Shown here piece after piece: positions 4,908 to 51,215 of a stretch of DNA of 64,000 bases (its first letter is position 1; the number at the start of each line of letters is the position of its first letter). A program made the translations under genes and the position numbers. Origin of the DNA: Alphaproteobacteria bacterium UBA3773 (GTDB lineage Bacteria; Pseudomonadota; Alphaproteobacteria; RF32; CAG-239). The notes under the pieces are model-generated. The model saw only the letters and a list, made by a program, of their open reading frames with translations, did not search any database and was not told where the DNA came from. The stretch is from positions 2,157 to 66,156 of the forward strand of contig DFFP01000025.1 of NCBI GenBank assembly GCA_002372275.1, read 5' to 3'.

Positions 4908-5290
4908 GCGTGTCATGCTGAACGTATTGGAGCGCGACAGCTACGCATTGTCATCCTGGAATCAACGATGAGCAAGCTTGTCGCGCTCTATTTGTTTCAG
5001 GATCTTTACCCGTCACCCTTAGATTTATCCCGAGGGTCTCTCTATCTGTCACGCCTCGAGAACACCATCGGTGTTCGAGATTAGGCGTCCATGAAAGCAA
5101 CAAAATCGCCATTCCGAGGAACGCCCTGAGGCGTGACGTCGGAATCCATTCCTTATAAAAAGAATTTTCGCAAACACCGTGTCGCAATCCATTCCCTATT
5201 TACCCTCCCCTTAAGAGGCTCCATTTCTTTTCTCCCCCTTGAGGGGGGAGGTTTGGAGAGGGTGAAAATCATTTACCCTTATTAATAATC
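4908..5290 (-). repeat. Cluster of short palindromic REP/MITE-like elements (minus orientation), 3' of paralogue A
   Basis: On the minus strand: GGAATGGATTGCGACACGGTG..., GGAATGGATTCCGACGTCACGCCTCAGGGCGTTCCTCGGAATGGCG, GCCTAATCTCGAACACC-GAT-GGTGTTCTCGAGGCGTGACAG, plus the hairpin ctccccc-ttga-gggggag. The same element families occur at 26.7 kb and 48.0 kb. Confidence 0.7.
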
Positions 5291-5416
5291 TTTTATAGCT
5301 CAAACGGCGACATTTTGTTCATAAGCAAATACAGCGAAATTAACAAACAAGTGACCAAAGAGAATGCCAGCTCTCTAGAAGATAAAGAGAGGGTGATAAT
5401 AAATAATTCCTTACCC

Positions 5417-6325
5417 CTACCGATACCTTAACTTAAACGTATTTTTATTATCTTTCACAAGCGCTGAGGCCTCATCAACGTTCAAAATTCTTTTTCCTTG
5501 TAAACCAATTAGCTTTCCATCTTTATCATAAATCGCCACCGATCCATCTGAAGCATAAGAATATCGTTCAAGCAGTTCACCATTACCATTATATTTACCT
5601 AAAATCTTCCCATTCTCATCTTTTTTGGTATAACTTCCGGATATCACATCACCATTTGCCGTAAAATTTTCAAAACTGCCAAAAATTTGTGTAATATTAC
5701 CATCTTTATCATAAACCACATAATTATCCCCGTCTTTTTCATAGATAAGCGCATTACTTCCGCATTTTGAAGATGTGCAATATACTGTTCCGCTCGGCCA
5801 ATACGTTAATTCAACATCTCCCTGTACCCATGGGTAATATATTCGAGTATTTTCTGGAATAACCACACGTTTGACACCTGAAGAATAAAAAATATTGCCG
5901 GTTATTTTTTCTACAGTTTCAGGTATAACTAAATTTGGTGTAGACAAACGATAAAAAGCACCACCATTTATTTCTTTTAATGAATTTGGTAAAGATACTT
6001 CTCCGGCGCTTAAACCCGTATATCCTGAAAAACTGTCAGCAATACTTTCCATCCCTTCTGCAAAAACAATTTTTGAAAGATTTTTTGTCGGCATGTCTCT
6101 CAGCCAAGGAGACTGATATCCGTAATTTCCATAAATTGCCTCTGTTTTTTTGCCTGAAAATGTCAATGTATTTGAAGCAGAATCATACCGTGCCGTACAA
6201 TCTGAACCGCACGACCAACAATTTGAATCCGTATCCCCGTTTTCTTGCCCACATGGCGTTGCAATACCTGCCAAAACAGGTTTAACCATTAACAGCAAAA
6301 AACTTAAACACAACATCTTTTTCAT
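5417..6325 (-). CDS. Exported Cys-rich BspA-type LRR / YD-like repeat protein with conserved C-terminal tail (paralogue A)
   Basis: Signal peptide MKKMLCLSFLLLMVKPVLAG, taking the ATG at 6325 with GGGAG upstream; the ORF extends to a TTG at 6340. N-terminus CG..C..C...NTLTFSG. LRR_5-like SLPNSLKEINGGAFY / VIPETVEKITGNIFY. YD-like YDKDGN repeats. Tail GKRILNVDEASALVKDNKNTFKLRYR. Confidence 0.75.
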   Translation of the reverse strand: MKKMLCLSFLLLMVKPVLAGIATPCGQENGDTDSNCWSCGSDCTARYDSASNTLTFSGKKTEAIYGNYGYQSPWLRDMPTKNLSKIVFAEGMESIADSFSGYTGLSAGEVSLPNSLKEINGGAFYRLSTPNLVIPETVEKITGNIFYSSGVKRVVIPENTRIYYPWVQGDVELTYWPSGTVYCTSSKCGSNALIYEKDGDNYVVYDKDGNITQIFGSFENFTANGDVISGSYTKKDENGKILGKYNGNGELLERYSYASDGSVAIYDKDGKLIGLQGKRILNVDEASALVKDNKNTFKLRYR

Positions 6326-6343
6326 TATTTTTTCTCCCAACTA

Positions 6344-6457
6344 TTATAAAAAAAATCGCTTTCATAAAAAGCGACTGGAAGTTGGAAACTACTAACTAGA
6401 AATAGTGCGCATATTCGCTAAATGCTTATTTTGCGACCTTCCAGTCCAAACTGGAAG
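6344..6457 (-). promoter_or_regulatory. Structured 5' leader of paralogue A with alternative pairings and a terminator-like hairpin
   Basis: Plus-strand coordinates: gactggaag (6373-6381), cttccagtc (6438-6446), actggaag (6450-6457). The middle segment can pair with either flank. Hairpin tcgcttt-cataa-aaagcga (6356-6374) is followed on the minus strand by U8 (6348-6355), just upstream of the SD and ATG. Confidence 0.3.
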
Positions 6458-6562
6458 CTTGACATCATAAAAACTATGACGCTAGTTATGAGGTTTCCAC
6501 ACCCCAGATAGCTTTTTTTTGCCATCTATCGTTATTGTAACAAATATTGTCAAACAAAGCAA

Positions 6563-6592
6563 GAAAAAAAGCCACCTGACAACAGACGGCTT
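6563..6592 (-). terminator. Rho-independent terminator after the tolC / PopZ-like operon
   Basis: Minus strand aagccgtctg-ttgt-caggtggctt (10 bp including two G-U pairs) followed by TTTTTTT. Confidence 0.55.
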
Positions 6593-6628
6593 CATTATAA
6601 AATTTTTACAATACTGTAAAGTGCTGTT

Positions 6629-6880
6629 TTATTCTTCCGTTTTTTCAAGCTCTTGAACATTTTGTTCCTGAGCTTGATTTTTTGTATCAAGAATAAACGA
6701 AAATTCCTTTATGATTTCACCGGCGACTTTATCATAATCCACTTTATACGATTTTTTATAGATCATTTCTTTTGTGAGTTCAAAAATATCTTCTTTCGAA
6801 ACAATTTCTTTTTTCTCAAGCAAAATATTTCGAATGGAAGTTAATATTTCTTCTGTTGATATTTCTTCCGTTTCGTTCAT
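6629..6880 (-). CDS. Small acidic protein with PopZ/DUF2497-like N-terminal motif
   Basis: 83 aa. N-terminal EEISTEEILTSIRNILLEKKE resembles the (M)EEILASIRRII motif of PopZ/DUF2497. It starts 9 nt after the tolC stop, which suggests an operon. Confidence 0.55.
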   Translation of the reverse strand: MNETEEISTEEILTSIRNILLEKKEIVSKEDIFELTKEMIYKKSYKVDYDKVAGEIIKEFSFILDTKNQAQEQNVQELEKTEE

Positions 6881-6889
6881 ATTTCATCC

Positions 6890-8251
6890 TTATTTATCAA
6901 TCGAAAGTGAAAGCCATTTATTTCTGATTTTTTGGCTCATTTCATCAGGGTTATGATATTTCACGTTTAATTTTAAATCTTTTGCGGTTAATTTACCCAT
7001 TGAAAGTAAAAGTGCCATTCCTGAAACGTAATAATCACGTCTGGCCTCAACTTCAGCCACATTAGCATTTAAAAGTTCCTGATAAGCGTCTAAAACGTCC
7101 AAAACAGTTCTGTTTCCGAGTGCTTCTTCCTGCTGAACACCGTCAAGTGCAATCGCATACGCTTTAATTTGATCTTTTGAGGATTCGATGCGTGACTCGT
7201 TTGTGACCATATATTCATAGTTACCCGAAACGGTTGCAATCATCGCTCTTTCAGCTTCTCTGACTTTTTCTTCAGCTTCCCATCTTTTATACTTACTTTG
7301 CCTGATTTTAGCGCGTGTTTCACCCGAAGAATAAAGCGGCACAACCATATTAACCCCCCATTGATATGTGTGTGTTTCCGGATCTTTTGAGCGATAAGCT
7401 TCTTGTTTCGATCTTGCAGCCGAAGCTTCAAAATTAACTTGCGGAAGAAGTGCTCCTTCGTTTGCAACAACCGTATTTTTTTGTGCTTTTAAGGCACTTT
7501 TAGCAGCTTTTAATTCATAATTGTGTTCATAAGCGAATTTTAAGGCTTCATCGGCATCTTTCGGAAAAGCCTCTGATAAACTGGCCGGTTCTGTTAAATT
7601 TTCGGGTGTTGTTCCGATAATTTGAATATAGATTGCTTTAGAGGCCGCTAAATTTCCCTCAGCGGCAATTCGGCTTGAAATCGCAGCACTGTGGCGAGCC
7701 TCAGCCTGAGCCACATCCGTACGCGTCACCTCCCCCACATTAAAACGTTCACGCGTTTCATCTAAACGTTTTTTCAAAAGTTTTTCATTATTTTTTTGTA
7801 AATTCACAATAGATTCATCTTTTAAAACGTCCAAATAAGCTGTTGAAGCGGCAAGCAATATTTCCTGCTCCACTTCATATAAAGCATATTGTTCAGCCTC
7901 AGCTGCTTTATCAGCTGCCCTCACAGCGTAATACGTTGAAAGTCCGTTAAAAATAGGCTGACTTAAAACGGCGGCAATTGATTTTTGATATCCGTCATTA
8001 TATTGAACAGCCGGGTTCATATCGTTATGGGCGTGTGTATCTGTATATCCGCCTTTTAAGGCAATATTCGGGCGGTATCCTGATTTTGCAATCGCTACAT
8101 TTTCGCTGACAGATCCTAAATTTGCTCTTTCTCCTGCTAAAGTCGGGTTATGATTATAAGCATCTTCCATAGCTTCAAAAATAGATGCGGCCTGAACATT
8201 GAAGCAAACGGCCGAAAAACAGCAAAAAGACCAAAAAATTATTCTTTTCAT
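6890..8251 (-). CDS. tolC: TolC-family outer membrane channel
   Basis: Signal peptide. Two tandem TolC repeats with coiled-coil heptads. Typical alphaproteobacterial TolC N-terminus (EAMEDAYNHNPTL...ANLGS) and size (453 aa). Confidence 0.85.
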   Translation of the reverse strand: MKRIIFWSFCCFSAVCFNVQAASIFEAMEDAYNHNPTLAGERANLGSVSENVAIAKSGYRPNIALKGGYTDTHAHNDMNPAVQYNDGYQKSIAAVLSQPIFNGLSTYYAVRAADKAAEAEQYALYEVEQEILLAASTAYLDVLKDESIVNLQKNNEKLLKKRLDETRERFNVGEVTRTDVAQAEARHSAAISSRIAAEGNLAASKAIYIQIIGTTPENLTEPASLSEAFPKDADEALKFAYEHNYELKAAKSALKAQKNTVVANEGALLPQVNFEASAARSKQEAYRSKDPETHTYQWGVNMVVPLYSSGETRAKIRQSKYKRWEAEEKVREAERAMIATVSGNYEYMVTNESRIESSKDQIKAYAIALDGVQQEEALGNRTVLDVLDAYQELLNANVAEVEARRDYYVSGMALLLSMGKLTAKDLKLNVKYHNPDEMSQKIRNKWLSLSIDK

Positions 8252-23515: not shown

Positions 23516-25363
23516 CTATCTCCTGATATAACCTAAAATTGCCGTAATCGCGGCCGGCGTCATTCCCGGAATACGTGAAGCTTCGCCAATAGTTGACGGT
23601 CTGACCTTTTCAAGCTTTGAGGTGATTTCACGCGATAATCCGCCGATTTTTTGATAATCGATATCTTCTCTGATTTGAAGCTCTTCATCTTTTTTGAAAA
23701 CTTCGATATCGGCCATTTGTCGTTTCATATAACCGCTGTATGTTGATTCGATTTCAATTTGTTCAATAACTTTTGAGTCAAACTCATTGATTTTCGGAAA
23801 TATTTCTTTTAATGTTTCACGTGAAACATTGTTAAATCCCATTAAATTAAAAAGCGTTTTTTGCGTTCCGTCATGATTGATTGTCACCCCGAAATCATGA
23901 AGTGCGGCATAATTTAGTTTTTCGCTTAAAGTATATTCTCGAAGTTTATCAATTTGATTTTTCTTTTTTGTAAAAGATTGATAACGCGCGCTACCTACAA
24001 CACCGATTTGATGTCCTTTTTCGGTTAATCTCAAATCAGCGTTATCTGCTCTTAAATAAAGGCGATATTCAGAGCGCGAGGTAAACATACGATAAGGTTC
24101 ATCAACGCCTTTTGTGATTAAATCATCGACCATGACGCCGATATATCCTTCCGAGCGGTCAATTGTGAAAGTGCGTCCCTTGTTTTCAGCAGAAAGTGCC
24201 GCATTAATGCCGGCAAGCAAACCTTGCGCAGCGGCTTCTTCGTAGCCTGTTGTGCCGTTAATTTGACCGGCTAAAAAGAGGTGAGGGACTTTTTTAACTT
24301 CTAAGCGAGAATTAAGCTCTTGCGGATTGACATAATCATATTCAATCGCATAGGCGTAGCGCAAAATTTCGACATCTTCCAAGCCTTTCATTGTGTGAAT
24401 AAAGGCATCTTGCACATCAGCAGGCAACGAGGTTGAAATACCGTTGGGGTAAATCACGTTTGTATTGTAGCCCTCGGGCTCTAAAAAGATTTGGTGCGAT
24501 GTTCGATCGGCAAATTTAACGAGTTTATCTTCAATAGAGGGACAATATCTCGGGCCGACACCTGTGATTAAACCGGAGAAAAGAGCACATTTTGAAAAAT
24601 TGTCGCGGATGATTTGATGGGTTTTTTCGTTTGTGTGAGTGACAAAACAATCAATTTGTTTGTTTGTGATTTTATCTGTTAAAAAAGAAAAAGGTTCCGG
24701 TTTTTCATCTCCGCTTTGACGTTCCAGCTCATCAAAATGAATGGTATCTGCATTTAAGCGGGCAGGGGTTCCGGTTTTTAAGCGACCGAGCGAAAGGTTG
24801 AGCTCTTTTAAGGATTCGGTTATACCATGACAAGCCGGTTCACCGATTCGGCCGCCAATGGTTGTTTGATGACCCGTAAACATCACACCGTTTAAAAATG
24901 TGCCCGTTGTTAAAACAAGAGCAGAACATAAGATTGTTTCACCCGTTGCAAGAACCACCCCGCAAACACCGTTTGGATCAGAACAAATTTTTTGAACTTC
25001 GCCTTCAATGATTGTTAAATTTTGGGTGTTTTGTAATGCCTCAAGCATATATTTTTTATAAAGTTCACGATCTGCTTGCGCACGCGGTCCGCGAACGGCT
25101 GGCCCTTTGGATAAGTTCAGCATACGAAATTGAATACCGGCCTTGTCAATCACTTTTCCCATTAAGCCGTCGAGCGCATCGACTTCGCGTACCAAATGAC
25201 CTTTGCCGAGGCCACCGATAGAGGGGTTGCACGACATTTCACCGATATTGCCGATTTTATAAGTAATTAAAGCGGTATGCGCACCCATGCGTGCGCTGGC
25301 TGAGGCAGCTTCAACACCGGCATGACCGGCGCCGACCACGATAACATCAAATTTTTGTTGCAT
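23516..25363 (-). CDS. mnmG: tRNA uridine 5-carboxymethylaminomethyl modification enzyme MnmG (GidA)
   Basis: [23 protein letters not shown] motif (ATG at 25363; the ORF extends to 25429). [36 protein letters not shown]. Confidence 0.97.
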
Positions 25364-25858
25364 ATTATTATCCTTTGAAAATGTTTGTACTATACGCCCA
25401 CATATTAAAAATTCAAGAAAAAAAGTCATTCCAAAGCAGTATTGTATGGTGTATAATGCTTTTTAATGAATCTAAGATGATTTTTACTTGCATTAATAGA
25501 AAAAGTGTGAGATAATTTTAAAAGATAGAGAAAGAATTTCTTTATCGAGTGCCTGAAATGAGGCGCGGAGCTTTAACGAGCTTTTTATACCGAGCAGTGA
25601 TGGATAACACTGCAAGTTGTGCTGTCCTTTTTTATTTTAAAGGATTGCATTTTATCCCCGATTTATCTTTGGTTCGGGGAGTCCGTGACGAATGTTCAAG
25701 ATTTATCTAAAGGTCACGGAAGTCATTTCTCGGTATATGATTCGTTAACTCTCCGACCGCTTTTTTCAAAGGCGGTTTTTTAATTGGATTAATTTATTGT
25801 CACCCTCTATGTGTCTCCCCTTTTCTGGGGGAGAGGAAATGGATAAAGGAGAAAGATT

Positions 25859-26713
25859 ATGAAAATAAATCGAGTTTTAATTACTGGAATTATTGCGATA
25901 ATTTTTGTATTTCCATGCGTTGTTTCGGCAGAGACAGGTACGTGTGGTTCAAATGCAACAGCAACTTGTATATGGGAAACGATTGTTTTGCCAAATGGGG
26001 AAAAACAGCTTGTTATTTCACGCGAAGGAACGGGAAATGTGGCTTTAAATACTAAAACAAAGCCTTGGGGCTCAGGAATATCGGAAATTGTCATTAAGGA
26101 GGGAATAAACAAGATAAAAGAATGGGCTTTTGATGAGCAAAAAGGTGTAAAATCAGTTAATATGAGTGAGGCTAAAGATTTAACAACCATAGAACGAGCA
26201 ACTTTTTCAAATATTCCATCGTTAAAAACGGTTATAATGCCAGAAAATCTCACTTCTGTATATTATGATCGAAATAATGATTTTAATAATCATCTTTTTA
26301 TACGCTCCGGTATAGAAAAGATATACTGTACAGCTTCACAAATGACTGGAGCTTGCTCCAAATTAGCTGCAGATTATAATGTGCAAAAATATGCGCAGGA
26401 TGGAAATTATTATATTGTTTATGATAATGAGGATAATATTTCGGCAATTTTCGATAGCTCAAGTGATTTTCAGCATAATAAAGTATCAGATGGTTCATAT
26501 ACAAAAAAAGACGAAAATGAAAAGCCTATTGCTCAATATGATGGTAGGGGAAATGTTATTGCTGCGTATTCATATAACAACGACGGGTCGGTTTCGATAT
26601 ATGACGCGAATGGAAAGTTGATTGGTTTGCAGGGAAAACGCATTTTAACCGTTGATGAAGCGTCGGCACTTGTGAAAGATAACAAGAATACGTTCACATT
26701 AAAGTATCGGTAG
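25859..26713 (+). CDS. Exported Cys-rich BspA-type LRR / YD-like repeat protein with conserved C-terminal tail (paralogue B)
   Basis: Signal peptide MKINRVLITGIIAIIFVFPCVVSA. TGTCGSNATATCIW. LRR_5-like IVIKEGINKIKEWAF / TTIERATFSNIPSLKTVIMPENL. YD-like repeats. Tail GKRILTVDEASALVKDNKNTFTLKYR. Confidence 0.75.
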   Translation: MKINRVLITGIIAIIFVFPCVVSAETGTCGSNATATCIWETIVLPNGEKQLVISREGTGNVALNTKTKPWGSGISEIVIKEGINKIKEWAFDEQKGVKSVNMSEAKDLTTIERATFSNIPSLKTVIMPENLTSVYYDRNNDFNNHLFIRSGIEKIYCTASQMTGACSKLAADYNVQKYAQDGNYYIVYDNEDNISAIFDSSSDFQHNKVSDGSYTKKDENEKPIAQYDGRGNVIAAYSYNNDGSVSIYDANGKLIGLQGKRILTVDEASALVKDNKNTFTLKYR

Positions 26714-26718
26714 AATAA

Positions 26719-27010
26719 GGAATGGATTGCGACGCACTGCGTGCTCGCAATGACGGGTTAAGGGTAAGGAATGGATTCTTCGCTAGCGCTCTTAAATGAC
26801 AATTGTTTTTTATAAGGAATGGATTCTTCGGCCTAAAGGCTTTTGGATAATGTTTTTTTAGACCCCTAACTCGTGCGATTATATCGCACTCAGGGGTGAC
26901 AGGAAAGAGGAATGGACCCAGACATCGGACGAACTTCTCCTCTTAGGTGACGGTCTTATGAGATGACTGACATTTTGCTATTTGCAAAGCAGGCATGACA
27001 GAAAGAGCAG
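26719..27010 (+). repeat. Cluster of short palindromic REP/MITE-like elements 3' of paralogue B
   Basis: GGAATGGATTGCGACGCACTGCGTGCTCGCAATGACGG (26719-26757). GGAATGGATTCTTCGCTAGCGCTCTTAAATGAC (from 26768). GGAATGGATTCTTCGGCCTAAAGGC... (from 26816). CCCCTAACTCGTGCGAT-TAT-ATCGCACTCAGGGGTGACAGG (about 26863-26905). GGAATGGACCCAGACATCGG... (from 26909). Confidence 0.75.
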
Positions 27011-27021
27011 AAAAATAGGGC

Positions 27022-28368
27022 TTATTTACCGATACAGAAACTGCCGAAAATTTTATCTAAAATTTCACCGACTTCAATTTGTCCCGTGATTTTGCCGATG
27101 GCACGGGCGGCAAGGCGTATATCTTCGGCAGAAAGCTCGATTTCTTTTTCAAAATTAAAGTTTTCAAGGTTTTTCAAACATTCCGTTAAGGCTTCGCGAT
27201 AACGTGCGCGTGTCATAAGCGCGCTTGTGTTGGAGCCGATATTTTCTTTAATAAAAGCTCCTATTGAAGAAAATAATTCATTGATACCTGCGTTTGTTTT
27301 GGAAGAGAGGCACAAAATGTTTTTATTTTCAAATTCAGAACACTGTTCAGGTGTTATTTTATCGGCTTTTGAGGCAATAAGCCACAGGTTGTTCGGATGC
27401 TTTCTTTTTAAGGCGTTAAAAATATCGGGCTCTGTATCAGAGGCATCAAAAAGCGCTAAAATTAAGTCAGCCTCATCTATTTTTTCACGTGCCAGTTCAA
27501 TTCCTTCTTTTTCAATCGGATTGTTTGTTTCGCGAATGCCTGCCGTATCGGTTAAAATAACGGGATACCCGTTAACATCAAGCCTGATGTCAACAGCATC
27601 TCGGGTGGTGCCCGGAATATCTGACACAATAACGGCTTTGCGCTCGGTGATTGCATTGATAAGGCTTGATTTTCCGGCATTTGTCGGACCAGTGATAACA
27701 ATATGAAAACCATCTCTTAAACGTTCGCCGAAACGAGATGTTTTAAGGTGTTCTTTAATTTCAGATTTCAGTTTTGAAACATTATCTGAAATTTGATTGG
27801 TTAATTCTTTAGGTAATTCTTCTTCCGGAAAATCAATATAAGCTTCTAAATAAGCTTCAATATTTAATAGCCTCTCACGCCAAGAAGAATAAAGATTGTG
27901 CAAAGTGCCCGAAATTTGACGCAAGGCTTGTTTTTGTTGTTCGCGTGTTTCAGAATCGATCAAATCGGCCAAACCCTCAGCCTCGGTTAAATCCATTTTT
28001 TGATGATAAAAAGCGCGGCGCGAAAATTCACCGGGTTCGGCAAGACGAAAATTTTCAAACTTTGCAAGGGCTTCTAATATGGAAGATATTACAGCGCGCG
28101 AACCGTGGCACTGAATTTCGACAATATCTTCACCCGTAAACGAATGAGGCGCCTTAAAATAAAGAACAAGTGCCTGATCTAAAACCTCTTTTGTCAGAGG
28201 CGAAATGATAGGTGAAAAATAAGCATATCTTTCTTTGATTAAATGCGTGTCAATCGTTGTCATTTGAGAAATCACATCAATGGCATTATCGCCCGAAACA
28301 CGAATAACAGCCACGCCTGATTTGCCGTAAACAGTTGAAAGTGCGTATATTGTTTGTTTTAAATTCAT
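27022..28368 (-). CDS. mnmE: tRNA modification GTPase MnmE (TrmE)
   Basis: TIYALSTVYGKSGVAVIRVSG, G-domain GPTNAGKSSLINA / DTAGIR, C-terminal FCIGK. Confidence 0.96.
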   Translation of the reverse strand: MNLKQTIYALSTVYGKSGVAVIRVSGDNAIDVISQMTTIDTHLIKERYAYFSPIISPLTKEVLDQALVLYFKAPHSFTGEDIVEIQCHGSRAVISSILEALAKFENFRLAEPGEFSRRAFYHQKMDLTEAEGLADLIDSETREQQKQALRQISGTLHNLYSSWRERLLNIEAYLEAYIDFPEEELPKELTNQISDNVSKLKSEIKEHLKTSRFGERLRDGFHIVITGPTNAGKSSLINAITERKAVIVSDIPGTTRDAVDIRLDVNGYPVILTDTAGIRETNNPIEKEGIELAREKIDEADLILALFDASDTEPDIFNALKRKHPNNLWLIASKADKITPEQCSEFENKNILCLSSKTNAGINELFSSIGAFIKENIGSNTSALMTRARYREALTECLKNLENFNFEKEIELSAEDIRLAARAIGKITGQIEVGEILDKIFGSFCIGK

Positions 28369-40439: not shown

Positions 40440-41213
40440 ATGAGAATACGATATTTCTACGTTTTTTTATTTACATGGCTATTATCAGGCGAGGTCTTAG
40501 CTGCTTGTACATGCACAACCATTGCGACAAATGAAGCCGGACAAGTCACAAAGGAAGATTGCGGAGCATCTTGTGGTGTGAAAGAATACCGTTATGACGG
40601 AGATACGAGATATACGACAACCACCAAAACAGAGTCCGGGAATATCGTGATCAGAGAAGAAACGCATATTAAATCTAAAAGCAGCAGCACATCATACAGC
40701 GTTACAACAGCATACAAAGAAACAGAATATGATGCACAAAATAATCCGAAAAAAATTGAAAACAGGTATTATACCCTTACAGAATCAAGTACGGGAACAA
40801 AATCATCTTCTTTAGCTTCGGGTGTGGTGATCAGTAATACTTATCAAAACGGTTTGCTGGTATCTGCAACAGAAACAAATAAAATCAGGGGCTCAAGCGG
40901 CAGTTTGGTTAATGAGGGAACCAGAAATAAAATTACATATACATATGATGATAATCAAAAACTGATTTCAAGTGAAAGTGTTTTACAAGTATCGGTAGGT
41001 ACAAATAAATGGGAAGAAGCTGATCCGCCCGTTGTGACAACAAATAAGTATGCCTCAAACGGAACTTATGAAACATATGTGAACGGAAAAATGACAGGAA
41101 AATACAATGCAGACGGTACAGCATATTTAGCTAAAAGAATATATACTGTTGATGAGGCTACAAAAGCTATTCGTAAAGGTGGTAAAAATTCTTTTTCCAT
41201 AAGGTATCGTTGA
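40440..41213 (+). CDS. Exported Thr/Ser-rich protein sharing the conserved C-terminal tail (paralogue C)
   Basis: Signal peptide MRIRYFYVFLFTWLLSGEVLAA. ACTCTT...CGASCG. No obvious LRR. YD-like NADGTAY. Tail AKRIYTVDEATKAIRKGGKNSFSIRYR. Confidence 0.65.
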   Translation: MRIRYFYVFLFTWLLSGEVLAACTCTTIATNEAGQVTKEDCGASCGVKEYRYDGDTRYTTTTKTESGNIVIREETHIKSKSSSTSYSVTTAYKETEYDAQNNPKKIENRYYTLTESSTGTKSSSLASGVVISNTYQNGLLVSATETNKIRGSSGSLVNEGTRNKITYTYDDNQKLISSESVLQVSVGTNKWEEADPPVVTTNKYASNGTYETYVNGKMTGKYNADGTAYLAKRIYTVDEATKAIRKGGKNSFSIRYR

Positions 41214-41290: not shown

Positions 41291-42406
41291 ATGAGCAGAA
41301 AAAAATCTATCGGACTTATTTTTGTTGTCGTTGTTGCCTTTTGGACGGGCGTTTTTTCGTTTTGGTTTTATCAAAAAAAAGGTGTGGCAACTTTATATCA
41401 ATCAAACGAAGAGGAAATCGAGCTGAACACGGCAGATGTTTTAGCGCAAGATGCGGTTTTAAGTAAAAAATATGTGGGTTATGTGACACCTGTTCATGAG
41501 GCTGTTATTCAGCCGTTTATCAGCGGATTTATCGAAGAAATTAACGTAAAAGGCGGGCAAAATGTGAAAAAAGGCGAGATACTTCTGATCTTAAAGCAAG
41601 ACGAATATCAGGCAAAAATAAAAGCCGCAAAAGCTGCACTTGAACAGGCAAAGGCAAATTTAAAAAACAAAGAAGTGTATTATAGGCGCCTTCAAAAGGC
41701 AGGCAAGGCCGTTTCGCCCTCGGAACTTGATGCGGCTGAGGCAGATTATTTGGCCTCGCTTGCCTCTTTGCAAAGCGCCGAAGCGGATTTGAAAATTGCA
41801 GAAGTGAATTATGAATATACGTATATCAAATCAGGTATCAGCGGGGTCACAGGCGATGTGTCTTTAACGAAAGGAAATTATGTTTCGCCGCAATCAAAGT
41901 TACTGACTGTGATGCAATTTGAACCCATCCGAGTTGTGTTTTCCGTTCCGAGCAGCGAGTACCGAAAAGAAATGAAAAAAACAAAGCCTTTTGAGGATGA
42001 AAAAATTTTTTTAGCATTTGAAAATGGAGACATCTTTCATGAAGAAGGGGCGTTTCAATATACCGATAATGCCATTAATCAGGCAACGGATTCCATGGCT
42101 GTTTATGTGGATTTTAAAAATAAAGAGCACCTCCTTATTCCGAATTCTTATGTGACGGTTTTGTGTTTTGAAAAATTAAAAAATGTGGTTTTGGTGCCTA
42201 AACAATATGTGGTGATGAAAGACAGCGGGAATTTTATTTATGTTGTGCGAGGCGGAACCTTAAAACAAGTTGAAATTAAAATTTTAGGAACAATCGGGGA
42301 AAATTTTGCTGCTCAAAATGTTTTTGAAAATCAAGATCAAATTGTGCTTCAAAATGTCAATCCGGCCGATTTGGATAAAAAAGTGAAACAAAAAAAAGAG
42401 GCTTAG
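41291..42406 (+). CDS. RND efflux periplasmic adaptor (membrane fusion protein)
   Basis: N-terminal TM anchor, lipoyl/hairpin coiled coil (QAKIKAAKAALEQAKANL...SAEADLKIAEVNYEYT), beta-barrel C-terminal half. Confidence 0.85.
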   Translation: MSRKKSIGLIFVVVVAFWTGVFSFWFYQKKGVATLYQSNEEEIELNTADVLAQDAVLSKKYVGYVTPVHEAVIQPFISGFIEEINVKGGQNVKKGEILLILKQDEYQAKIKAAKAALEQAKANLKNKEVYYRRLQKAGKAVSPSELDAAEADYLASLASLQSAEADLKIAEVNYEYTYIKSGISGVTGDVSLTKGNYVSPQSKLLTVMQFEPIRVVFSVPSSEYRKEMKKTKPFEDEKIFLAFENGDIFHEEGAFQYTDNAINQATDSMAVYVDFKNKEHLLIPNSYVTVLCFEKLKNVVLVPKQYVVMKDSGNFIYVVRGGTLKQVEIKILGTIGENFAAQNVFENQDQIVLQNVNPADLDKKVKQKKEA

Positions 42407-45400
42407 ATGTTTGCAAAGTTTTTTATCGACAGACCGCGTTTTGCTATTGTTGTGGCGATTGTTATGGTGCTACTCGGCACGCTTGCCTTATTTGTTTTGC
42501 CTGTGTCGCAATATCCGGAAATTACGCCGCCTCAAATTGTTGTGACGACAAATTATTTGGGGGCAAATGCCGAGGTTTTAACAGATACCGTTGCTATTCC
42601 GATTGAAAATCAGATGAACGGGGTGGAGAATATGCTTTATATGTCATCGACGTCTGATGACAGCGGAAAATATACTTTAACCGTGACTTTTGACATCGGA
42701 TCTGATCCGGATATTTCGCAGGTCAAAGTTCAAAACAGACTCCAGCAGGTGACCTCAGAATTGCCGCAAACGGTGACTGAACAAGGAATTGATGTTTCAA
42801 CGCGTAACTCGAATATCTTGGGTTTTTTGGTTTTGCGTTCGCCGGGCGGAACATATTCAAATCTTTATTTAAGTAATTATGCCTATGAAAATTTGAAAAA
42901 TCCGCTTGCGCGTGTTCCGGGGGTCGGAAATGTGCAGATTTTCGGTCCGCAATACAGTATGCGTATTTGGATTGATTCGGATAAACTGACAGCTCTCAAT
43001 TTAAGCAGTACGGATGTGATAACGGCAGTTCAGACACAAAATGTTCAGGCCTCGGTTGGAAGTATCGGGGCAATGCCGTCACCTGAAAATAACACGATGG
43101 TTTTATCACTGACCGCCAAAGGGCTCTTAAAAAGTGTTCAGGACTTTGAAAATATTGTGATTGCCACCTCAAATGAGGGCGGAATTGTTCGTCTGAAAGA
43201 TGTGGCACGTGTGGAACTCGGTGCCGATTCTTATTCCATACATTCTTCTTTTAAAAATGCGCCGGGGGTCATTATTGCTTTAAATCAAACACCGAATTCA
43301 AATTCACTTGATGTGATGAAAAGAATTAAAAAAGAAGTCAAAGAACTTTCAAAAAGTTTTCCTTCCGATATGGTTTTTGAAGTGGCTTATGATTCAACAA
43401 AATATGTTTCGGCGTCGATTAAAAGTATTATTGAAACGCTTGTCATCACATTTTCGCTTGTGGCGATTGTGACTTATTTGTTTTTACAAAACTTGAAAAC
43501 AACGCTTATTCCGCTCTTAACCATTCCGGTTTCATTGATTGCGACATTTATTGTGATTTATTTAATCGGGTTTGATATTAACATTTTAACCTTATTTGCT
43601 TTTATTTTGGCTATTGCGCTTGTGGTGGATGACGCAATTATCGTCGTTGAAAGAGTGGAGTATTTAATGGAGCACGAAAAATTAAATGCTTATGACGCCT
43701 CGGTGAAGGGTATGAAAGAAATTTCAAGCGCCATTGTCGCCACAACGTTTGTTTTGCTTGCGATTTTTATTCCGGTCGGTTTGATGGCCGGTATTACGGG
43801 AAAAATTTATCAACAATTTGCGGTGGCGATTTCAACATCCGTTGCTTTTTCTGCGCTCAATGCCTTGACGCTTTCACCGGCACTATCGGCCGTTTTTTTG
43901 AAAAATATTGATCTGAAAGGCCGAAAAAACAGATTTTTTGAAAAATTTAATGACCTTTTATTTAAGGCGGAAAAAATATATGGTCGTTTTGTGGCTTTCT
44001 TTTCAAAACATTTGTTTTTAACGGCAGGCAGTGTCATCGTTTGTATTTTGCTTATTTTTTTAAGTTTTAAAATCACGCCGGTTTCGTTTTTGCCTGAAGA
44101 AGATCAGGGAATTATTTTTGCAAATTTACAACTGTCTGAGACAGCATCCCTTAATCAAACAGATGAGGCCTTAAAAGAACTTTCAAATAAGGCGATGAAA
44201 ATGAAAGGAGTCGATTTTGTGGTCAGTGTGGCAGGTTACAGCCTGCTTGGCGGACAGGGCGAAAATGTGGCGCTTGCCGTGATCGGACTTGAAGATTGGG
44301 ATAAGCGAAAAACAAAAGAATTGTCAGCTTCTTATATTACAGATTTGCTCTCAAAGGAATTTTCAAAAAATACAAATGCCTCGTTTAACTTTTTTCCGCC
44401 ACCTGCCATTGCAGGTATCGGTCAGGCCGGCGGGTTGAGTTTTGAGCTTTTATCGCTTGACGGGGCTTTGACGCCTTCTGATTTATATTTGAAATTGCAG
44501 GAACTTTTAAAAAAACTTAATCAGCTTCCTGAAATTTCGTATGCTTTTTCAACATTTAGATCAGATACGCCTCATGTTTATTTAGATATTGATCGAACAA
44601 AACTGGAGAGTTTTGATGTGCCTGTTTCAAATCTTTTTCAAACACTTCAAAATAATTTGGGCGCAAGATATATCAATAATATTGCCTTAAACGGACAGGT
44701 AAATAAAGTGATTGTGCAGGCTGATTTTCAATACCGAAAAAATTTGGAAGATATCGGAAATTTATATGTGACCTCGAAAAACGGCAATCAGATTTTGGTG
44801 AAAAATTTTATCAATCTTTCAACATTTGTCAGCCCGAAAATAATAAGCCGGTATGATTTATATACCTCAGCTTCGGTGACCGCGCAGGCAAACGAAAACG
44901 TTTCAAGCGGAACGGCGATTGATTTGATTGAAAAAACAGCTCAAAAAATTTTGCCGAGCTCTTATAAAATTGCATGGACGGGGCTTTCGCTTCAGGAAGT
45001 GGAGGCCAGAGGGCTGGCCGGTATTTTAATCGGGTTGGCACTTGTTTTTTGTTATTTGTTTCTGGTGGCGCTATATGAAAGTTGGCTTTTATCATTTTCT
45101 GTGATGTTTTCAACCGTTTTTGCCATTTTAGGGGCTTTTATCGGACTTCATCTGATGGGGCATTCTTTGAGTATTTATGCGCAGCTCGGGCTGATTATGC
45201 TTATCGGGCTGGCGGCTAAAAATGCTATTTTGATTGTGGAATTTACAAAAAATTATCGTCAAGCAGGTTTGAGTATTGTTGAGGCTTCCGTAAAAGGTGC
45301 GACCGAGAGGTTTCGGGCGGTTTTAATGACGGCACTGACCTTTATTTTGGGTGTTTTTCCGATGCTTGTGGTCAAAGGTGCGGGAGCTCAATCGCAACAT

Positions 45401-45538
45401 GCCATCGGGACTTCGGTTTTTTATGGGATGATTGCGGCAACATTTATCGGTATTATTTTTATTCCGGCACTTTTTGCTTTTTTTGAGAGCATCAAAGAAA
45501 AATTCGGTACACCAAAAAAAGGGGCAGAAAATGGTTAA
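42407..45538 (+). CDS. RND efflux permease (AcrB/MexB family)
   Basis: [24 protein letters not shown]. 12-TM architecture with two large periplasmic loops. [10 protein letters not shown] motif. 1043 aa. Confidence 0.95.
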
Positions 45539-46940
45539 AAAAATAATGTTTATGATGTTTTTTCTTTTGTCATGCACCGTCGGCCCGGATTATCAAAAAA
45601 AAGAAATTTATGAAGATCAGAAAATCGCTCAAAATTTGGAACTGCGTGGTCAAAAAACACAAATTTCCAAAGATTGGTATCTGATGTTTCAAGATGAGGT
45701 CTTAAATCATTTAATTTCAAAAGGTCTTCAAAACAGCCCGAGTGTTTTGGCTATGGCCGAAAAATTAAGGCAGGCACGCTTGGTTTTCAAAAAAGGGCAG
45801 GCTCAATATATGCCGATGTTTAATTTCAAAGGGGGATACAGTGATGAAAAGGTGAGCAAAAATATCGGTCTTGCCGCGGATTCGGAATATTTTTCAGCCG
45901 GATTTGACGCCGTTTGGGAAATTGATATTTGGGGTAAAGGGCGGCGCCTAAACGAGCAAAATTTAGCAAACCTTTCAAAAAGTTATTATACGCTTGCCAA
46001 TATGAAAGCTATTCTTTCATCTGAAATTGCCAAAACATATTTTTTAATGAAAACAGCGCAAGAAAAAAAACGTATTGCGCAAAATAATTTGAAACTCCAA
46101 AATGATATTTTTCAGAGCATTGAAGATAAATTTAAAGCAGGCCTGACAGATGAAACAAGTTATCGCCAAAGCCTATATCTGCTTGAAAAGACAAAGTCTT
46201 TAATTCCGCAAATTGATGCGCAAATTTTAGCTTATCAACATTCTTTGGAAGTCTTGACGGGAACGTTGCCGCAAAATAGGGCAGATGCGGCGCTTTTTTC
46301 ATCTGCTTTTAAGCCAAAAATTCAATTTGAAACCAAACAGCTTTTTGATTTGCCGGTGAATATTATCCGCTCACGACCTGATGTGAGGGCATCAGAGCAA
46401 GCTTTAATTGCGCAAAATGCGGCTGTCGGGCAAGCCATAGGTGCATTGTATCCTGATGTTTCAATTTCAGCGCTTGTGGGGTGGGCAGCGCAAAACGGGA
46501 CGGATTTATTTAACCACAAGAGCAATACATCTTCGGTTTCGCCGTCTGTTATCGCGCCGATTTTTCATTTCGGGCAGCTTCAAAATCAAATTGAAATTGA
46601 AAAATCAAAATATAAAGAAGTTTATGAAAATTATAAAAGTACAATCTTAAATGCCGTTGCGGAACTTTCAAATGCGATGGTGCAGGTTAGGCAAGAATAT
46701 AAGGCAAACGAACACAAAAAAAATTCTGTTTTTCAGATGAAAAAGGCTTTAAGCGGACAAAGACAAAAATATGAAAGCGGTTTGATTGAGTATTCGGCTT
46801 TGCTTGAAAGCCAGCAGGATTTGCTTTCATCCGAACTGGATTTAACCGAGAGTTTGGGCAATATATATACGGCCATCATCGCTTTTTATAAAGCAACAGG
46901 CGGCGGGTATAACGAAAACACTTTGGCTGTTGGAAACTAA
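45531..46940 (+). CDS. Efflux outer membrane factor lipoprotein (NodT family)
   Basis: The ATG at 45531 gives [21 protein letters not shown] (lipobox LLSC) and overlaps the permease stop by 8 nt. OEP repeats are present. Confidence 0.85.
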
Positions 46941-47195: not shown

Positions 47196-48011
47196 ATGAA
47201 AACGAATCGAATTTTAATACCAGGCTTTATGGGAATAATGTTTTGTTTTCAGGCGTTTGCGGCAGATACGGGATCGTGCGGAAAAAACTGCCGATATACA
47301 TACAGTAACGGTACTTTGATTTATACGGGCACGGGACCAAACAACAGCGGCGTCATAACAGAAATAAATCGATCTTGTTGCAATGATTATGGGCTTTCAG
47401 GCGAAATTGAAAATATCATTATTGAAGAAGGTATTACAACTATTCAAACAAACGGATGGGGCGTTGTGAACGGAGGAAACGGTAAAGGTTATGTTAAAAT
47501 ACCGAGTACAATGACATCTTTGCCGTTGAATGCTATAGGAGGCTTTTTTGAGACAATTGAGATAAATTCAAAAAATCTTGCAGTCGGGGATAGTGCATTT
47601 AAGTTTAGAGGTGATGATGTTAAAATTATTTTATCAGGTGATGCCGATATTAGTTTTGATCGGTATGCGTGCTATGATAATTCGCATAGTAATGCGATTT
47701 ATCCAGATAAATTAACGATATTATGTAAAGGAAAACCTCAGGAGTGCTTAGAGAAGTTCGGTCATGCTCTTGATTCTATGACAGGAACAATTAGCGCAGA
47801 CTATTACAAGGGCTTGAATGAAGATGGCAATTGGGAAGTGTGGAGTGACAGTGGAAAGGCAGTTTATGCCGATTCGAGCATGCAGAAGTTAATTGCAAAA
47901 TATGATTTTGACGGAAATCAAATAAAGCCGAAACGTATTTATACTGTTTTGGAGGCTGAGGAGGCTTTGGGGAAAAATAATAGGAATACGTTTAAGCTAA
48001 AGTATCAGTAG
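47196..48011 (+). CDS. Exported Cys-rich BspA-type LRR protein with conserved C-terminal tail (paralogue D)
   Basis: Signal peptide MKTNRILIPGFMGIMFCFQAFAAD. GSCGKNCRYTYSNGTLIYTGTG. LRR_5-like IIIEEGITTIQTNGW / VKIPSTMTSLPLNAIGGFF. Tail PKRIYTVLEAEEALGKNNRNTFKLKYQ. Confidence 0.72.
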   Translation: MKTNRILIPGFMGIMFCFQAFAADTGSCGKNCRYTYSNGTLIYTGTGPNNSGVITEINRSCCNDYGLSGEIENIIIEEGITTIQTNGWGVVNGGNGKGYVKIPSTMTSLPLNAIGGFFETIEINSKNLAVGDSAFKFRGDDVKIILSGDADISFDRYACYDNSHSNAIYPDKLTILCKGKPQECLEKFGHALDSMTGTISADYYKGLNEDGNWEVWSDSGKAVYADSSMQKLIAKYDFDGNQIKPKRIYTVLEAEEALGKNNRNTFKLKYQ

Positions 48012-48020
48012 GAAGAATAT

Positions 48021-48226
48021 TGAATGGATTCTTCGCTTCGCTCTTAAGTGACGGTTTTTTTTATATTTTAGATGCCTAACTCGCGCCTTTGGCGCTCAGG
48101 CATGACAGAAAAGAGGAGAATAACGGTTCTTTGGATCTTCGGGACAAGCCCAAAGATGACGAGAAAGAGGATAAAAAAGGAATGGATCCTGACGTCACGC
48201 CTTTCGCCGTTCCTCTGGATGACGGT
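48021..48226 (+). repeat. Cluster of short palindromic REP/MITE-like elements 3' of paralogue D
   Basis: TGAATGGATTCTTCGCTTCGCTCTTAAGTGACGG (48021-48054). TGCCTAACTCGCGCC-TTT-GGCGCTCAGGCATGACAG (48073-48108). GGATCTTCGGGACAAGCCCAAAGATGACG (48133-48163). GGAATGGATCCTGACGTCACGCCTTTCGCCGTTCCTCTGGATGACGG (48179-48225). Confidence 0.75.
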
Positions 48227-48300
48227 TGTTTTTGAGACCCTTGAGCTCGGATATTGATATTTTAAATAAGGGTATTATCTTCTGCTTAAAGGAGATAATC

Positions 48301-48600
48301 ATGAAAAAAATAGGGATATTTTTTGTTTTGTGGCTTATGGCTTGTACTTACGGAGCAGGCGTTAATGAGAGTTTGACTTATCAATGTGGCGGGCAGATTG
48401 TGGATCTGGTATTTTCAGATGATGAAACGATTGTTATCAATATAAGCGGGCAAAATTATGTTTTAAATCAGGTGAATACTTCGGTTGGTGAGCAATATAT
48501 GAATGAAGAACAAAATATTATGGTTGTTACAGATGGCAATGACGTCTACGTCACAATCAACGGCGTTTCGTTTCCGCAATGCGCGCAAATAACAAAATAA
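48301..48600 (+). CDS. Small lipoprotein, possibly MliC-like (lysozyme-inhibitor fold)
   Basis: The ATG at 48301 gives MKKIGIFFVLWLMACTYG (lipobox LMAC). About 100 aa with YQCGG...VGEQY...FPQC spacing reminiscent of MliC. Weak, motif-only evidence. Confidence 0.4.
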   Translation: MKKIGIFFVLWLMACTYGAGVNESLTYQCGGQIVDLVFSDDETIVINISGQNYVLNQVNTSVGEQYMNEEQNIMVVTDGNDVYVTINGVSFPQCAQITK

Positions 48601-48628: not shown

Positions 48629-49390
48629 TTATTGTAAAGGCGGAATGTTGAGCTGAGCAATGGCTCCCGGACGAATTTTAACGCTTGAATAACGCATGTT
48701 GCCCGTTTCAATTACAAAACGTTGACGCCCTGTGAGCTGCGAAGCTAAATCATAAAAATCGCGACCGTTTAATTCTTGACGTTGGGGATTCATGACGTAT
48801 AAAACACACCCTTGCATTTTTTCGGAAACACCGCAGCGCGCACGTCCCTTCGGGACTTCAGGGTTAATCACAACGCCTTGCAAGCCGTTTTGGACGACTT
48901 GATCGCCACCTTTAAAGAAAAGTGCGCCGATAAAAACACCGACAAACAAGCAAAGAAGCGCAATCCAAAGAACTTTCTTTTTTTCTATGGTGCCGTATAA
49001 ATATGAAGAAGATGAGGCGTAAGCTGTTTGATCGGTTTGATTGTAGGCATAAGGGTCATCCTGCACATAATTTTCTTGAGGGGCATATGTGTTTTGAGCG
49101 TTCATTTGAGGCTCATAGTATTGCGGGACATTTGCGCTCATCTGAATGTTTTGTGTATCAGACGGTTCGGCCGATTCGTAGGTAAAAGGGGTGTTATCAT
49201 ATGAGGCATAGTTTTGAGCGTTTTGATCATTGCCTTGCATATCATATGAGGGATTTTGAGGAGCTTGAGAATAGATGTTGGGCGCGCTTTCGGTGCTGAT
49301 CGGTGTGGCATGTTGTTTCGGACGTTTGATTTTTCTTAAACGTCTGTTGCCAACGATTATTTCATCACCTTGATTATAATTTTCAGGCAT
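48629..49390 (-). CDS. Bitopic membrane protein: Q/N/Y/P-rich N-terminus, one TM segment, about 90-aa C-terminal domain
   Basis: AAGGAG Shine-Dalgarno sequence. Low-complexity N-terminal half (QNPSYDMQGNDQNAQNYASYDN...). TM segment VLWIALLCLFVGVFIGALFF. Last gene of the secretin operon. Confidence 0.6.
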   Translation of the reverse strand: MPENYNQGDEIIVGNRRLRKIKRPKQHATPISTESAPNIYSQAPQNPSYDMQGNDQNAQNYASYDNTPFTYESAEPSDTQNIQMSANVPQYYEPQMNAQNTYAPQENYVQDDPYAYNQTDQTAYASSSSYLYGTIEKKKVLWIALLCLFVGVFIGALFFKGGDQVVQNGLQGVVINPEVPKGRARCGVSEKMQGCVLYVMNPQRQELNGRDFYDLASQLTGRQRFVIETGNMRYSSVKIRPGAIAQLNIPPLQ

Positions 49391-49401
49391 CTTTTTCTCC
49401 T

Positions 49402-50649
49402 TTATAAATTGTTCTGTATCATGGCAGATGTTTTCATTGTTTTAATCAGGCGGGGAACCATGAAAACAACTGTTTCGGATTTGGGTTCTTTTTGACCGAA
49501 TAATTCGCCCGGCAACCCGATAATCATAAAGTTTTCGCCAAGTTCATTTCGAACGGAAAAATGTGTGAGTTGACCATCTGTTTTTTCAAGCGTGATGTCA
49601 GATGAAATATGATTATCGGCTTCAACAGAGGCTTTGGCCAAAACGGAAAGTTCCGATTCGGGGCAGGCCATGACACCGCATTTTCCGACATCAAAACGAG
49701 ATAACCATTGATTGGGGACAATAAATTTGCCCTCTGAAACAACTTGGACATTGGCTTTAGAGCCTAAAAACTTTTGAAGCGTTTTGATGTTGATGTCGTT
49801 TGTTGTGGTTAACACGCGACCGATCACACCTGTTTGTGCCGTTGTGATGCTGCCGAAATGAAATTCATCTAAAAGTGCTTTCCACTCGACATCGCACCCG
49901 TCAAACGGCGTGATTTTGAAAACACTGACATCATAAGCAACAAGTATAGGATTTTCTTCAAAGTATTCAATTAGTCTGGATATTTTGTTTTTTAATTCCA
50001 TATCCGCATTAAATGTGACGGAATATTCTGCCCAGTTGGTTGTGATGTTGGTTAAACCGGCACCGCGCAAAACATCTAAAAGCCCTAAAAGAATCGGGCG
50101 TGTTTTCGGAACATAAACAACGTGATCGGCGCGGCGAGATAACGTCATCAGCTTTTTGTCGGCATCGTATGAGTAAAAAACACCGGCAGCTTCGGTCATC
50201 ATGTTCACAATATCGGTTAGTTCGCCTTTTAAATCTTCGCCGGAAATGGAAGCATAGGGCGCATCCTTGGCTGTTAAGGTGATTCCGGCTTCTTTTGTTA
50301 ATTTGACAAGCGCTTGTTCCACAGGCATGGTTTCAAACGTAAAACCGGTGACTTCAAGTTTCGGTAAATCATCGGAGACCTTAACGGGCATAATCTTAAA
50401 TGCCGTGTTGTTAAAAGGAAGCGTTAAAATCATTTGCTGTGTTTCGCTGTTAATATTACAACGAAGGGGCGTTTCTAAATCAAGCGCATTGGCACCGTCA
50501 GGGGTGCGAATGGACATTTCATGCGGTTTTTCAATTTTAACATTAAGTTTTGAATAACTGTCATCTGCTATTTGAGCTTCACTTGGGGCAGTTGTGTGAC
50601 AAGCTGCTAAAAAACTCAAACATAAGAAACTTTCAAACAAACGTTTCAT
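49402..50649 (-). CDS. Short secretin-family outer-membrane lipoprotein
   Basis: Lipobox FLAAC. N0/secretin-N-like PVEQALVKLTKEAGITLTAKD...AAGVFYSYDADKKLMTLS. Secretin-core-like C-terminal half ending FMIIGLPGELFGQKEPKSETVVFMVPRLI. ATGA start/stop overlap with the upstream gene. Confidence 0.6.
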   Translation of the reverse strand: MKRLFESFLCLSFLAACHTTAPSEAQIADDSYSKLNVKIEKPHEMSIRTPDGANALDLETPLRCNINSETQQMILTLPFNNTAFKIMPVKVSDDLPKLEVTGFTFETMPVEQALVKLTKEAGITLTAKDAPYASISGEDLKGELTDIVNMMTEAAGVFYSYDADKKLMTLSRRADHVVYVPKTRPILLGLLDVLRGAGLTNITTNWAEYSVTFNADMELKNKISRLIEYFEENPILVAYDVSVFKITPFDGCDVEWKALLDEFHFGSITTAQTGVIGRVLTTTNDINIKTLQKFLGSKANVQVVSEGKFIVPNQWLSRFDVGKCGVMACPESELSVLAKASVEADNHISSDITLEKTDGQLTHFSVRNELGENFMIIGLPGELFGQKEPKSETVVFMVPRLIKTMKTSAMIQNNL

Positions 50650-51155: not shown

Positions 51156-51215
51156 GTTATTTTCCTCTTACGGTTCTAAAATAAACGAGTATCAATCATT
51201 TGTAAATGACTTTTT

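Follow-up and report, generated by a model that had tools for sequence, protein, structure and literature searches.

A strictly C-terminal tail shared by divergent exported proteins of uncultured rumen and gut Alphaproteobacteria

Four tail-bearing genes in the window

Our analysis concerns a 64-kb stretch of contig DFFP01000025.1 from Alphaproteobacteria bacterium UBA3773 (38% G+C), called the window throughout, and within it four genes, paralogues A to D, whose protein products begin with a signal-like segment and share a tail formed by their last 24-26 residues. This tail is an undescribed C-terminal module, under strong selection, carried by proteins that are exported in one narrow lineage of uncultured bacteria, and the reading that we favor is that a partner recognizes it as a docking or sorting tag. 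A preliminary description, made from the letters of the window without database searches, had drawn attention to these genes; all four are present in our open reading frame (ORF) listing, and the four tail strings quoted in that description are correct. Scanning the window in six frames for the tail pattern returned exactly four occurrences, each lying immediately 5' of a stop codon. The genes, their tails, and the relevant parts of B are as follows.

5417..6325, minus strand: paralogue A, 302 residues (ATG at 6325, upstream in-frame TTG at 6340; ORF listing), tail-bearing exported protein of the BspA-type LRR_5 class, also with beta-hairpin repeats (Pfam LRR_5, residues 82-161)
5417..5494, minus strand: tail of A, KRILNVDEASALVKDNKNTFKLRYR plus stop (six-frame pattern scan)
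25859..26713, plus strand: paralogue B, 284 residues, tail-bearing exported protein with an LRR_5 body and three beta-hairpin units
25859..25930, plus strand: signal-like N-terminus of B, MKINRVLITGIIAIIFVFPCVVSA followed by ET (cleavage site by eye, family hydropathy test)
26570..26635, plus strand: last beta-hairpin unit of B, 5' of the tail, SYNNDGSVSIYDANGKLIGLQG (alignments; model strands at residues 245-249 and 254-258)
26636..26713, plus strand: tail of B, KRILTVDEASALVKDNKNTFTLKYR plus stop (six-frame scan)
40440..41213, plus strand: paralogue C, 257 residues, exported, rich in Thr, Ser, and Asn, without a leucine-rich repeat (LRR) or Pfam domain, with the tail
41133..41213, plus strand: tail of C, KRIYTVDEATKAIRKGGKNSFSIRYR plus stop (six-frame scan)
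47196..48011, plus strand: paralogue D, 271 residues, exported beta-rich protein without a Pfam domain, with the tail
47931..48011, plus strand: tail of D, KRIYTVLEAEEALGKNNRNTFKLKYQ plus stop (six-frame scan)

All four proteins terminate in KRI[LY]xVxEA-(7-8 residues)-N[TS]Fx[LI][RK]Y[RQ]-stop; their overall identity amounts to 27-44%, and almost every invariant column of the alignment falls within the last 26 residues. Paralogue A is identical to database protein P0008. Each N-terminus is basic and then hydrophobic, a signal-like arrangement as judged by eye and by hydropathy, and to that extent the Sec signal peptides ascribed earlier to all four genes are borne out, although C possibly carries a lipobox instead. 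The start of C reads ...SGEVLAAC followed by TCTT (40440-40520), and that of its homologue P0055 reads ...NATAAC followed by TCTT, a possible lipobox rather than a signal-peptidase-I site; going by these residues, C may be a lipoprotein that bears the tail too.

In three points, the earlier account of the four proteins requires revision. In Pfam, LRR_5 matched A (39.3 bits, E=7.1e-10) and B (34.8 bits, E=1.8e-08) above its gathering cut-off of 27.7 bits, with no significant domain in C or D when whole proteins were searched, and NCBIfam yielded nothing above its cut-offs for any of the four. Three LRR members had been counted, D among them, but only A and B are significant; for D, the top Foldseek hit of its model, the LRR_5 protein 4gt6 (E=0.033, probability 0.21), is not. 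A start of the form CG..C is indeed conserved, C29 and G30 varying little or not at all among 25 sequences, but "Cys-rich" overstates a content of 4-8 residues (1.6-3.0% Cys). The repeat units described as YD-like are likewise present, at most one or two of them in C and D, but they are generic beta-hairpins. In the D subfamily, the block GNWEVWSD..GKA.YADSSMQK..KYDFDGNQ is conserved ahead of the tail.

Anatomy, distribution, and selection of the tail

Across 131 proteins, the tail follows the consensus G-K-R-I-Y-T-V-[DE]-E-A-(6-8)-K-N-T-F-x-[IL]-[RK]-Y-[RK]-COOH, with a length that is constant within about 2 residues. The I and the penultimate Y are invariant (131 each), E and N occur in 130, A in 129, and R and F in 124 each, while the last residue is R in 103 proteins, K in 25, and Q in 3, and position -4 is divided between I (74) and L (56). 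The position of the tail is exact: the motif is followed by one residue and then the stop codon in all 46 distinct six-frame DNA occurrences, a result independent of any gene caller, and by one residue and the protein end in 118 of 118 proteins. Short, hydrophilic, and basic (net charge +3 to +6), the tail has no hydrophobic helix, and its final residues, [NT]-T-F-x-[IL]-[RK]-Y-[RK]-COOH, form the pattern of an amphipathic beta-strand with a penultimate Tyr. A beta-hairpin, DGSxSIYDxNGKLIG, precedes the tail in most members but is not obligatory: C, D, and several relatives lack it at the position directly 5' of the tail.

Like the preliminary description, our analysis could assign the tail to no named domain. 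Whole proteins, isolated tails, and a tail profile gave no match on it in Pfam, NCBIfam, or the PDB, no well-characterised sorting domain was found in these three resources, and the isolated tail matched no Pfam family, dockerin included, even at E<=10. Two helix-turn-helix (HTH) candidates were discarded, namely a TetR HTH match at chance level (E=0.12) and a likeness to MerR/excisionase-type HTH segments (YTIxEA...T.RY) without statistical support. Full-text literature searches turned up no publication describing the tail.

With B as the query, a word-indexed search of 5.8 billion proteins returned only 25 matches, of which 23, including A and B of the window, carry the standard tail; the others are P0015, with a diverged tail ending in TFK, and two unrelated LRR proteins, P0024 and P0025. 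The same search with C gave only two homologues, both with the tail, and D gave 13, all with tails. The profile search of the tail end, proposed earlier, was run with HMMER and a 46-position profile (last hairpin plus tail) against 1.84 billion representatives, giving 498 matches at E<=1e-3. Among the best 150, matches that cover the tail always end at the last residue of the protein, and the rest are generic repeat proteins matched in the hairpin half only; this half of the profile also matches unrelated repeat proteins such as CylK. After the profile search, 121 tail proteins had been gathered, rising to 131 in the later consensus counts.

Full-length members comprise 210-457 residues, with a median of 292 residues over all 121 proteins, fragments included. 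A strongly hydrophobic N-terminus is present in 100 of 106 full-length members, in agreement with the earlier expectation that the tail is confined to signal-peptide proteins; the other six, which begin within the mature domain, look from their sequences like truncated gene calls. All 25 complete ORFs from the loci and the window have a signal-like start. Behind these starts, the bodies share an identity of only 25-45%, or none at all: Pfam assigned LRR_5 to 65 of 108 members, LRR_8 to 20, RHS_repeat to only 5, and nothing to the remainder, and for five tail proteins (window C, L011, L016, L030, and L035) no homology between the body and any other tail protein could be detected.

The family is confined to metagenome-assembled genomes (MAGs) of uncultured rumen and gut Alphaproteobacteria. 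In GTDB contigs, sampled as one genome per species, all 33 confirmed loci fall in six uncultured Alphaproteobacteria MAGs that come from roe deer, reindeer, yak, and cattle rumen; RUG13121 contains at least 14 copies and RGIG5118 at least 11. Metagenome matches from JGI and from whole-genome shotgun data are of the same kind as the MAG loci, B matches an AUXO01-prefixed contig at 100% identity, and the sequencing runs that contain the locus derive from gut, sheep, and bovine metagenomes. No relatives occur among the viral contigs of IMG/VR, and carriage by phages is thus not supported.

The tail codons have diverged almost freely at silent sites. Between A and B, the proportion of synonymous differences (pS) over 25 tail codons is 0.61 and that of non-synonymous differences (pN) 0.07; over 17 core codons, the six pairs in the window have pS values of 0.39-0.79. 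Within genomes, the tail shows pS 0.71 and pN 0.11, and synonymous divergence between genomes reaches 0.81, while nucleotide similarity among the window copies stops at the stop codon. Because the synonymous sites of the tail are near saturation while its amino acids are held, purifying selection acts on the protein; given this saturation and the scrambled codons, the conservation is explained neither by gene conversion of recent date nor by a repeat in the DNA, nor by an element of the RNA.

This selection also differs from genome to genome. Identity of the tail core is 0.83 within genomes versus 0.64 between them, a difference reached by none of 2000 label permutations, and the contrast is sharpest close to the end. 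Position -4 is Ile in 14 of 14 tails of RUG13121 (encoded by ATA, ATC, and ATT) and Leu in 11 of 11 tails of RGIG5118 (six codons); position -1 is Arg in 14 of 14 (six codons) and Lys in 10 of 11, respectively; and position -6 is Val in 11 and Phe in 3 tails of RUG13121 and Phe in all 11 of RGIG5118. Overall, the genome-specific flavors are IRYR, LRYK, LKYR, and TFK, the last belonging to a third type of tail, ..TPAEA..N.V.[LM]TFK, that sits on two body classes and has two of its three members in one sample. The bodies behave otherwise in several LRR proteins, for which the best relative from another genome scores like the best from the same genome (90 vs 89 and 101 vs 99 bits). Complete fixation of I or L per genome despite saturated silent sites suggests a genome-specific constraint, for which a single co-evolving reader would be the simplest source. 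Old intragenomic exchange of 3' ends may contribute by descent, but alone it cannot maintain the pattern.

Predicted structures set the tail apart from the bodies. The AlphaFold2 model of B, built like that of D with family alignments, has a mean predicted local distance difference test score (pLDDT) of 85.8, with most blocks above 90 and the tail blocks (residues 261-284) at 80, 64, and 53; the D model has a pLDDT of 81.5, with end blocks (residues 241-271) at 65, 62, 51, and 41. Only a short helix is predicted over the (D/L)EA... segment, and in both models the best-conserved segment, the tail, is the worst modeled. A confident body with a low-confidence tail is typical of a segment that becomes ordered on a partner, as far as such models can suggest. 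By Foldseek, the B model matches the LRR_5 structures 4h09, 4gt6, and 6mlx, the D model has no significant fold match in the PDB, and no match of either model covers the tail.

In the window, B lies between mnmG (gidA) and mnmE (trmE) (23516-28368) on the strand opposite to both, and together with its leader and an array of elements resembling repetitive extragenic palindromes (REP) it has the appearance of accessory DNA inserted between a pair of housekeeping genes. The neighbors of A are leuS and a TolC-like gene, C lies between sufS and a resistance-nodulation-division (RND) efflux operon, and D is 3' of the outer-membrane factor (OMF) gene of this operon. More precisely, A is downstream of an outer-membrane efflux protein (OEP) gene (6890-8251, minus strand), and C and D flank the operon, which encodes a membrane fusion protein (MFP), RND protein, and OMF, on the same strand (41291-46940, plus strand). 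This adjacency to TolC-like and RND genes was dismissed as a local coincidence, no OEP, MFP, or RND homologue being found beside tail genes elsewhere.

The 5' leaders of A and B (6326-6889, minus strand; 25430-25858, plus strand) contain a terminator-like hairpin, CGCTTTTT..AAAGCG[AG]TTTTT, about 20-90 nt before the start codon. REP-like elements with a GGAATGGAT core follow the stops of three of the genes (A, B, and D), C being the exception; these elements are not part of the tail because similarity begins only 3' of the stop.

5117-5416, minus strand: REP-like elements
26714-27013, plus strand: REP-like elements
48012-48311, plus strand: REP-like elements

Directly after D, at 48226-48600 (plus strand), a gene encodes a small exported MliC-like (lysozyme inhibitor) protein (Pfam MliC, E=1e-4). 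Four consecutive ORFs without a Pfam match (48629-53279, minus strand; 253, 415, 169, and 687 residues) lie between this gene and an HTH regulator that precedes an M23-VirB6-like cluster. At locus L001 (2134-5010), beside P0005, an orthologue of A, there is a gene trio for a Ser/Thr kinase, a PP2C phosphatase, and a VWA protein, followed by the S10 ribosomal protein operon. In RUG13121, five short ORFs (61-101 residues) consist of little beyond the last hairpin and an intact tail:

L015, 2860-3144: short tail ORF
L025, 2845-3135: short tail ORF
L026, 2935-3144: short tail ORF
L028, 2836-3141: short tail ORF
L033, 2914-3129: short tail ORF

Of these, L025 is a frameshifted LRR gene, and the other four have no recognizable upstream body; by their sequences, the five could be decaying genes or tail-only remnants.

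Possible roles of the tail

We favor the reading of the tail as a partner-read C-terminal docking or sorting tag on exported proteins, to which we assign a probability of roughly 0.55. The tail is modular, exactly terminal, and under protein-level and genome-specific selection; it is absent from known families and restricted to signal-bearing proteins of one narrow lineage. The earlier proposal that variable bodies with an invariant C-terminus mark a sorting, anchoring, or secretion signal fits all the computed evidence, from which we infer the function itself, the existence of a partner, beta-augmentation as its binding mode, and a destination at the surface or outside the cell.

According to this proposal, the tag would sit on Sec-exported envelope or surface proteins whose variable body, a BspA-type LRR or another beta-rich fold that presumably binds a ligand, would fold independently after export. 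The tail would stay exposed and be read by one shared partner per genome. A short strand-helix-strand unit would offer its last amphipathic strand (F-x-[IL]-x-Y) together with the free carboxylate one residue further on, and a shared periplasmic or outer-membrane partner would take up the strand by beta-augmentation while reading the carboxylate. Beta-strand augmentation of this kind, as known from chaperone-usher pilins, is the probable binding mode of the last strand (F-x-L-x-Y-x-COOH). The partner could then retain, display, or export the whole repertoire, with the tail acting like a dockerin or a sorting tag.

Several observations weigh against a partner-read tag. The tail genes of the window are scattered among housekeeping genes, and all-against-all clustering of ORFs within 3 kb of the 33 loci revealed no recurrent neighbor and identified no partner. 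Only DNA runs, and no RNA runs, were found to contain the locus. Low pLDDT can also reflect a short segment that is poorly modeled, the genome-specific flavor could in part be inherited, whether the paralogues expanded within a lineage or exchanged their 3' ends long ago, and the basic charge of the tail makes it possible that it binds anionic envelope polymers unspecifically.

In a more specific form, which we advance tentatively, the tail would serve as an address tag for a so far undescribed post-Sec pathway in diderm Alphaproteobacteria, its carboxylate being read by a dedicated, co-evolving envelope receptor or translocon, which would account for the genome-specific flavors. If this were true, variable LRR and non-LRR binders would be delivered to the cell surface or the medium. 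The LPXTG, PEP-CTERM, and type IX secretion system (T9SS) C-terminal domain (CTD) tags each led to a dedicated envelope machine, and the tail has the genomic signature of such sorting tags (many copies, variable cargo, strict terminus) without their physical features. The retuning of its flavor offers a handle, since the contact residues of the partner should co-vary with tail flavor across MAGs. Discovery of the partner would define how these bacteria display a variable, adhesin-like repertoire, and the tail profile is a searchable marker for the exported surface proteome of the lineage.

An unlikely alternative is that the tail is a self-association module, the tails of paralogues binding each other, for example by strand exchange, into homo- or hetero-oligomeric surface assemblies. 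An identical tail with a genome-specific flavor would also be expected if paralogues co-assemble, and the hydrophobic face of the strand-helix-strand unit (I, V, A, L, F, L/I, Y) is left unsatisfied in the AlphaFold monomers; however, if the tails only bound each other, there would be no explanation for a free C-terminus that lies strictly one residue past the Tyr, and no coiled-coil or known oligomerization domain was detected with Pfam.

We consider it improbable that the tail is recognized in the periplasm by a protease or quality-control factor of the PDZ type (Prc/CtpA, DegP/DegS class) and so controls maturation, turnover, or stress signaling. PDZ domains read C-terminal peptides, as DegS reads the YxF of outer-membrane proteins (OMPs), and the exactly terminal position of the tail, its conserved aromatic residue at -2, and its alternating hydrophobic residues would suit such a reader. 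Conservation nevertheless extends over 24-26 residues, far beyond the need of a PDZ ligand, the last residue is charged (R or K in 128 of 131) and not hydrophobic, as is usual for PDZ ligands, and genome-specific retuning is less expected because housekeeping proteases are conserved.

Little credence is given, likewise, to an intramolecular structural element without a signaling role, which would cap the beta-hairpin domain or nucleate its folding. The tail does directly follow a conserved beta-hairpin in most members, and the AlphaFold models place a short helix in it, but it also occurs on unrelated bodies and where no hairpin comes before it, the models are confident elsewhere and least so in the tail, and a cap would need neither an end one residue past the Tyr (46 of 46) nor retuning per genome.

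Conservation at the DNA or RNA level, as a recombination handle, part of REP-like arrays, or a 3' regulatory element, is largely refuted: the REP-like elements after three of the stops and the tail-only ORF remnants in one MAG speak for it, but synonymous sites are near saturation with little non-synonymous change, fixed residues use up to six codons within one genome, and nucleotide similarity ends at the stop codon.

Comparison with known systems

Membership of the Rhs/YD-repeat family, judged by large size, an Rhs core ending in PxxxxDPxGL, and a shell built from several RHS/YD repeats, was rejected: RHS_repeat matches are as rare as stated above, the proteins are 210-457 residues long with few beta-hairpins, and the models contain no shell. 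BspA-type LRR proteins (LRR_5, PF13306; 4h09, 4gt6, and TpLRR 6mlx) are closer, as LRR_5 bodies occur in A, B, and 65 of 108 members, and the signal peptide and the N-terminal CG..C...G.L.I.G.G start are held in common. The matched structures and families, however, lack the tail, and C and D are not LRR_5 proteins. Known BspA-type proteins are anchored otherwise, by a T9SS CTD, Big domains, or lipid or cell-wall anchors.

Among terminal signals, that of OMPs recognized by the beta-barrel assembly machinery resembles the tail in its alternating hydrophobic last strand with an aromatic residue near the end, but all 131 tails end in R, K, or Q, never in an aromatic residue, and the models of tail proteins are solenoid or hairpin folds, not beta-barrels. 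The basic Y-[RK] end recalls the C-terminus of Braun lipoprotein, Lpp, which ends in ...YRK; the terminal Lys needed for Lpp-type linkage to peptidoglycan by L,D-transpeptidases is nevertheless present in only 25 of 131 tails, Arg taking its place in 103.

The LPXTG/sortase, PEP-CTERM/exosortase, GlyGly-CTERM/rhombosortase, and T9SS CTD systems share with the tail a C-terminal signal in many copies on Sec-exported, variable bodies, and the NCBIfam and Pfam models of these signals gave no match on the tail. The first three require a hydrophobic transmembrane helix and a basic cluster, whereas the tail is without such a helix, and the T9SS CTD is a beta-sandwich of about 70-100 residues in Bacteroidota, as opposed to 24-26 residues in Alphaproteobacteria MAGs. 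The dockerin-cohesin pair provides a functional analogy only, in that a small C-terminal module sits on many bodies and per-species tuning implies one shared receptor. The tail differs in its length (25 versus about 70 residues), in having neither Ca-binding repeats nor a sequence or Pfam relation to dockerins, and in its host, a diderm alphaproteobacterium; no cohesin-like partner is known.

Membership among the chaperone-usher pilins fails, as A to D and the 108 members have no Fimbrial match or Ig-like domain in Pfam and no chaperone or usher gene was found among the neighbors of any copy at the examined loci; in the tail, moreover, the last strand comes after a helix and another strand. 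The likeness lies in the [AN]-T-F-x-[LVI]-x-Y-x-COOH ending: tails such as NTFKLKYQ and NTFTLKYR stand beside the ends of the type 1 pilins of Escherichia coli K-12 (FimA, ATFKVQYQ; FimF, ATFTLEYQ; FimI, WFSLTYQ; FimH, VTFVYQ), and the pilin-like pattern F-x-[IL]-x-Y-x-COOH is present in 124-131 of the 131 tails. In the pilins, this F strand and its carboxylate are gripped by a periplasmic PapD-like chaperone through beta-zippering.

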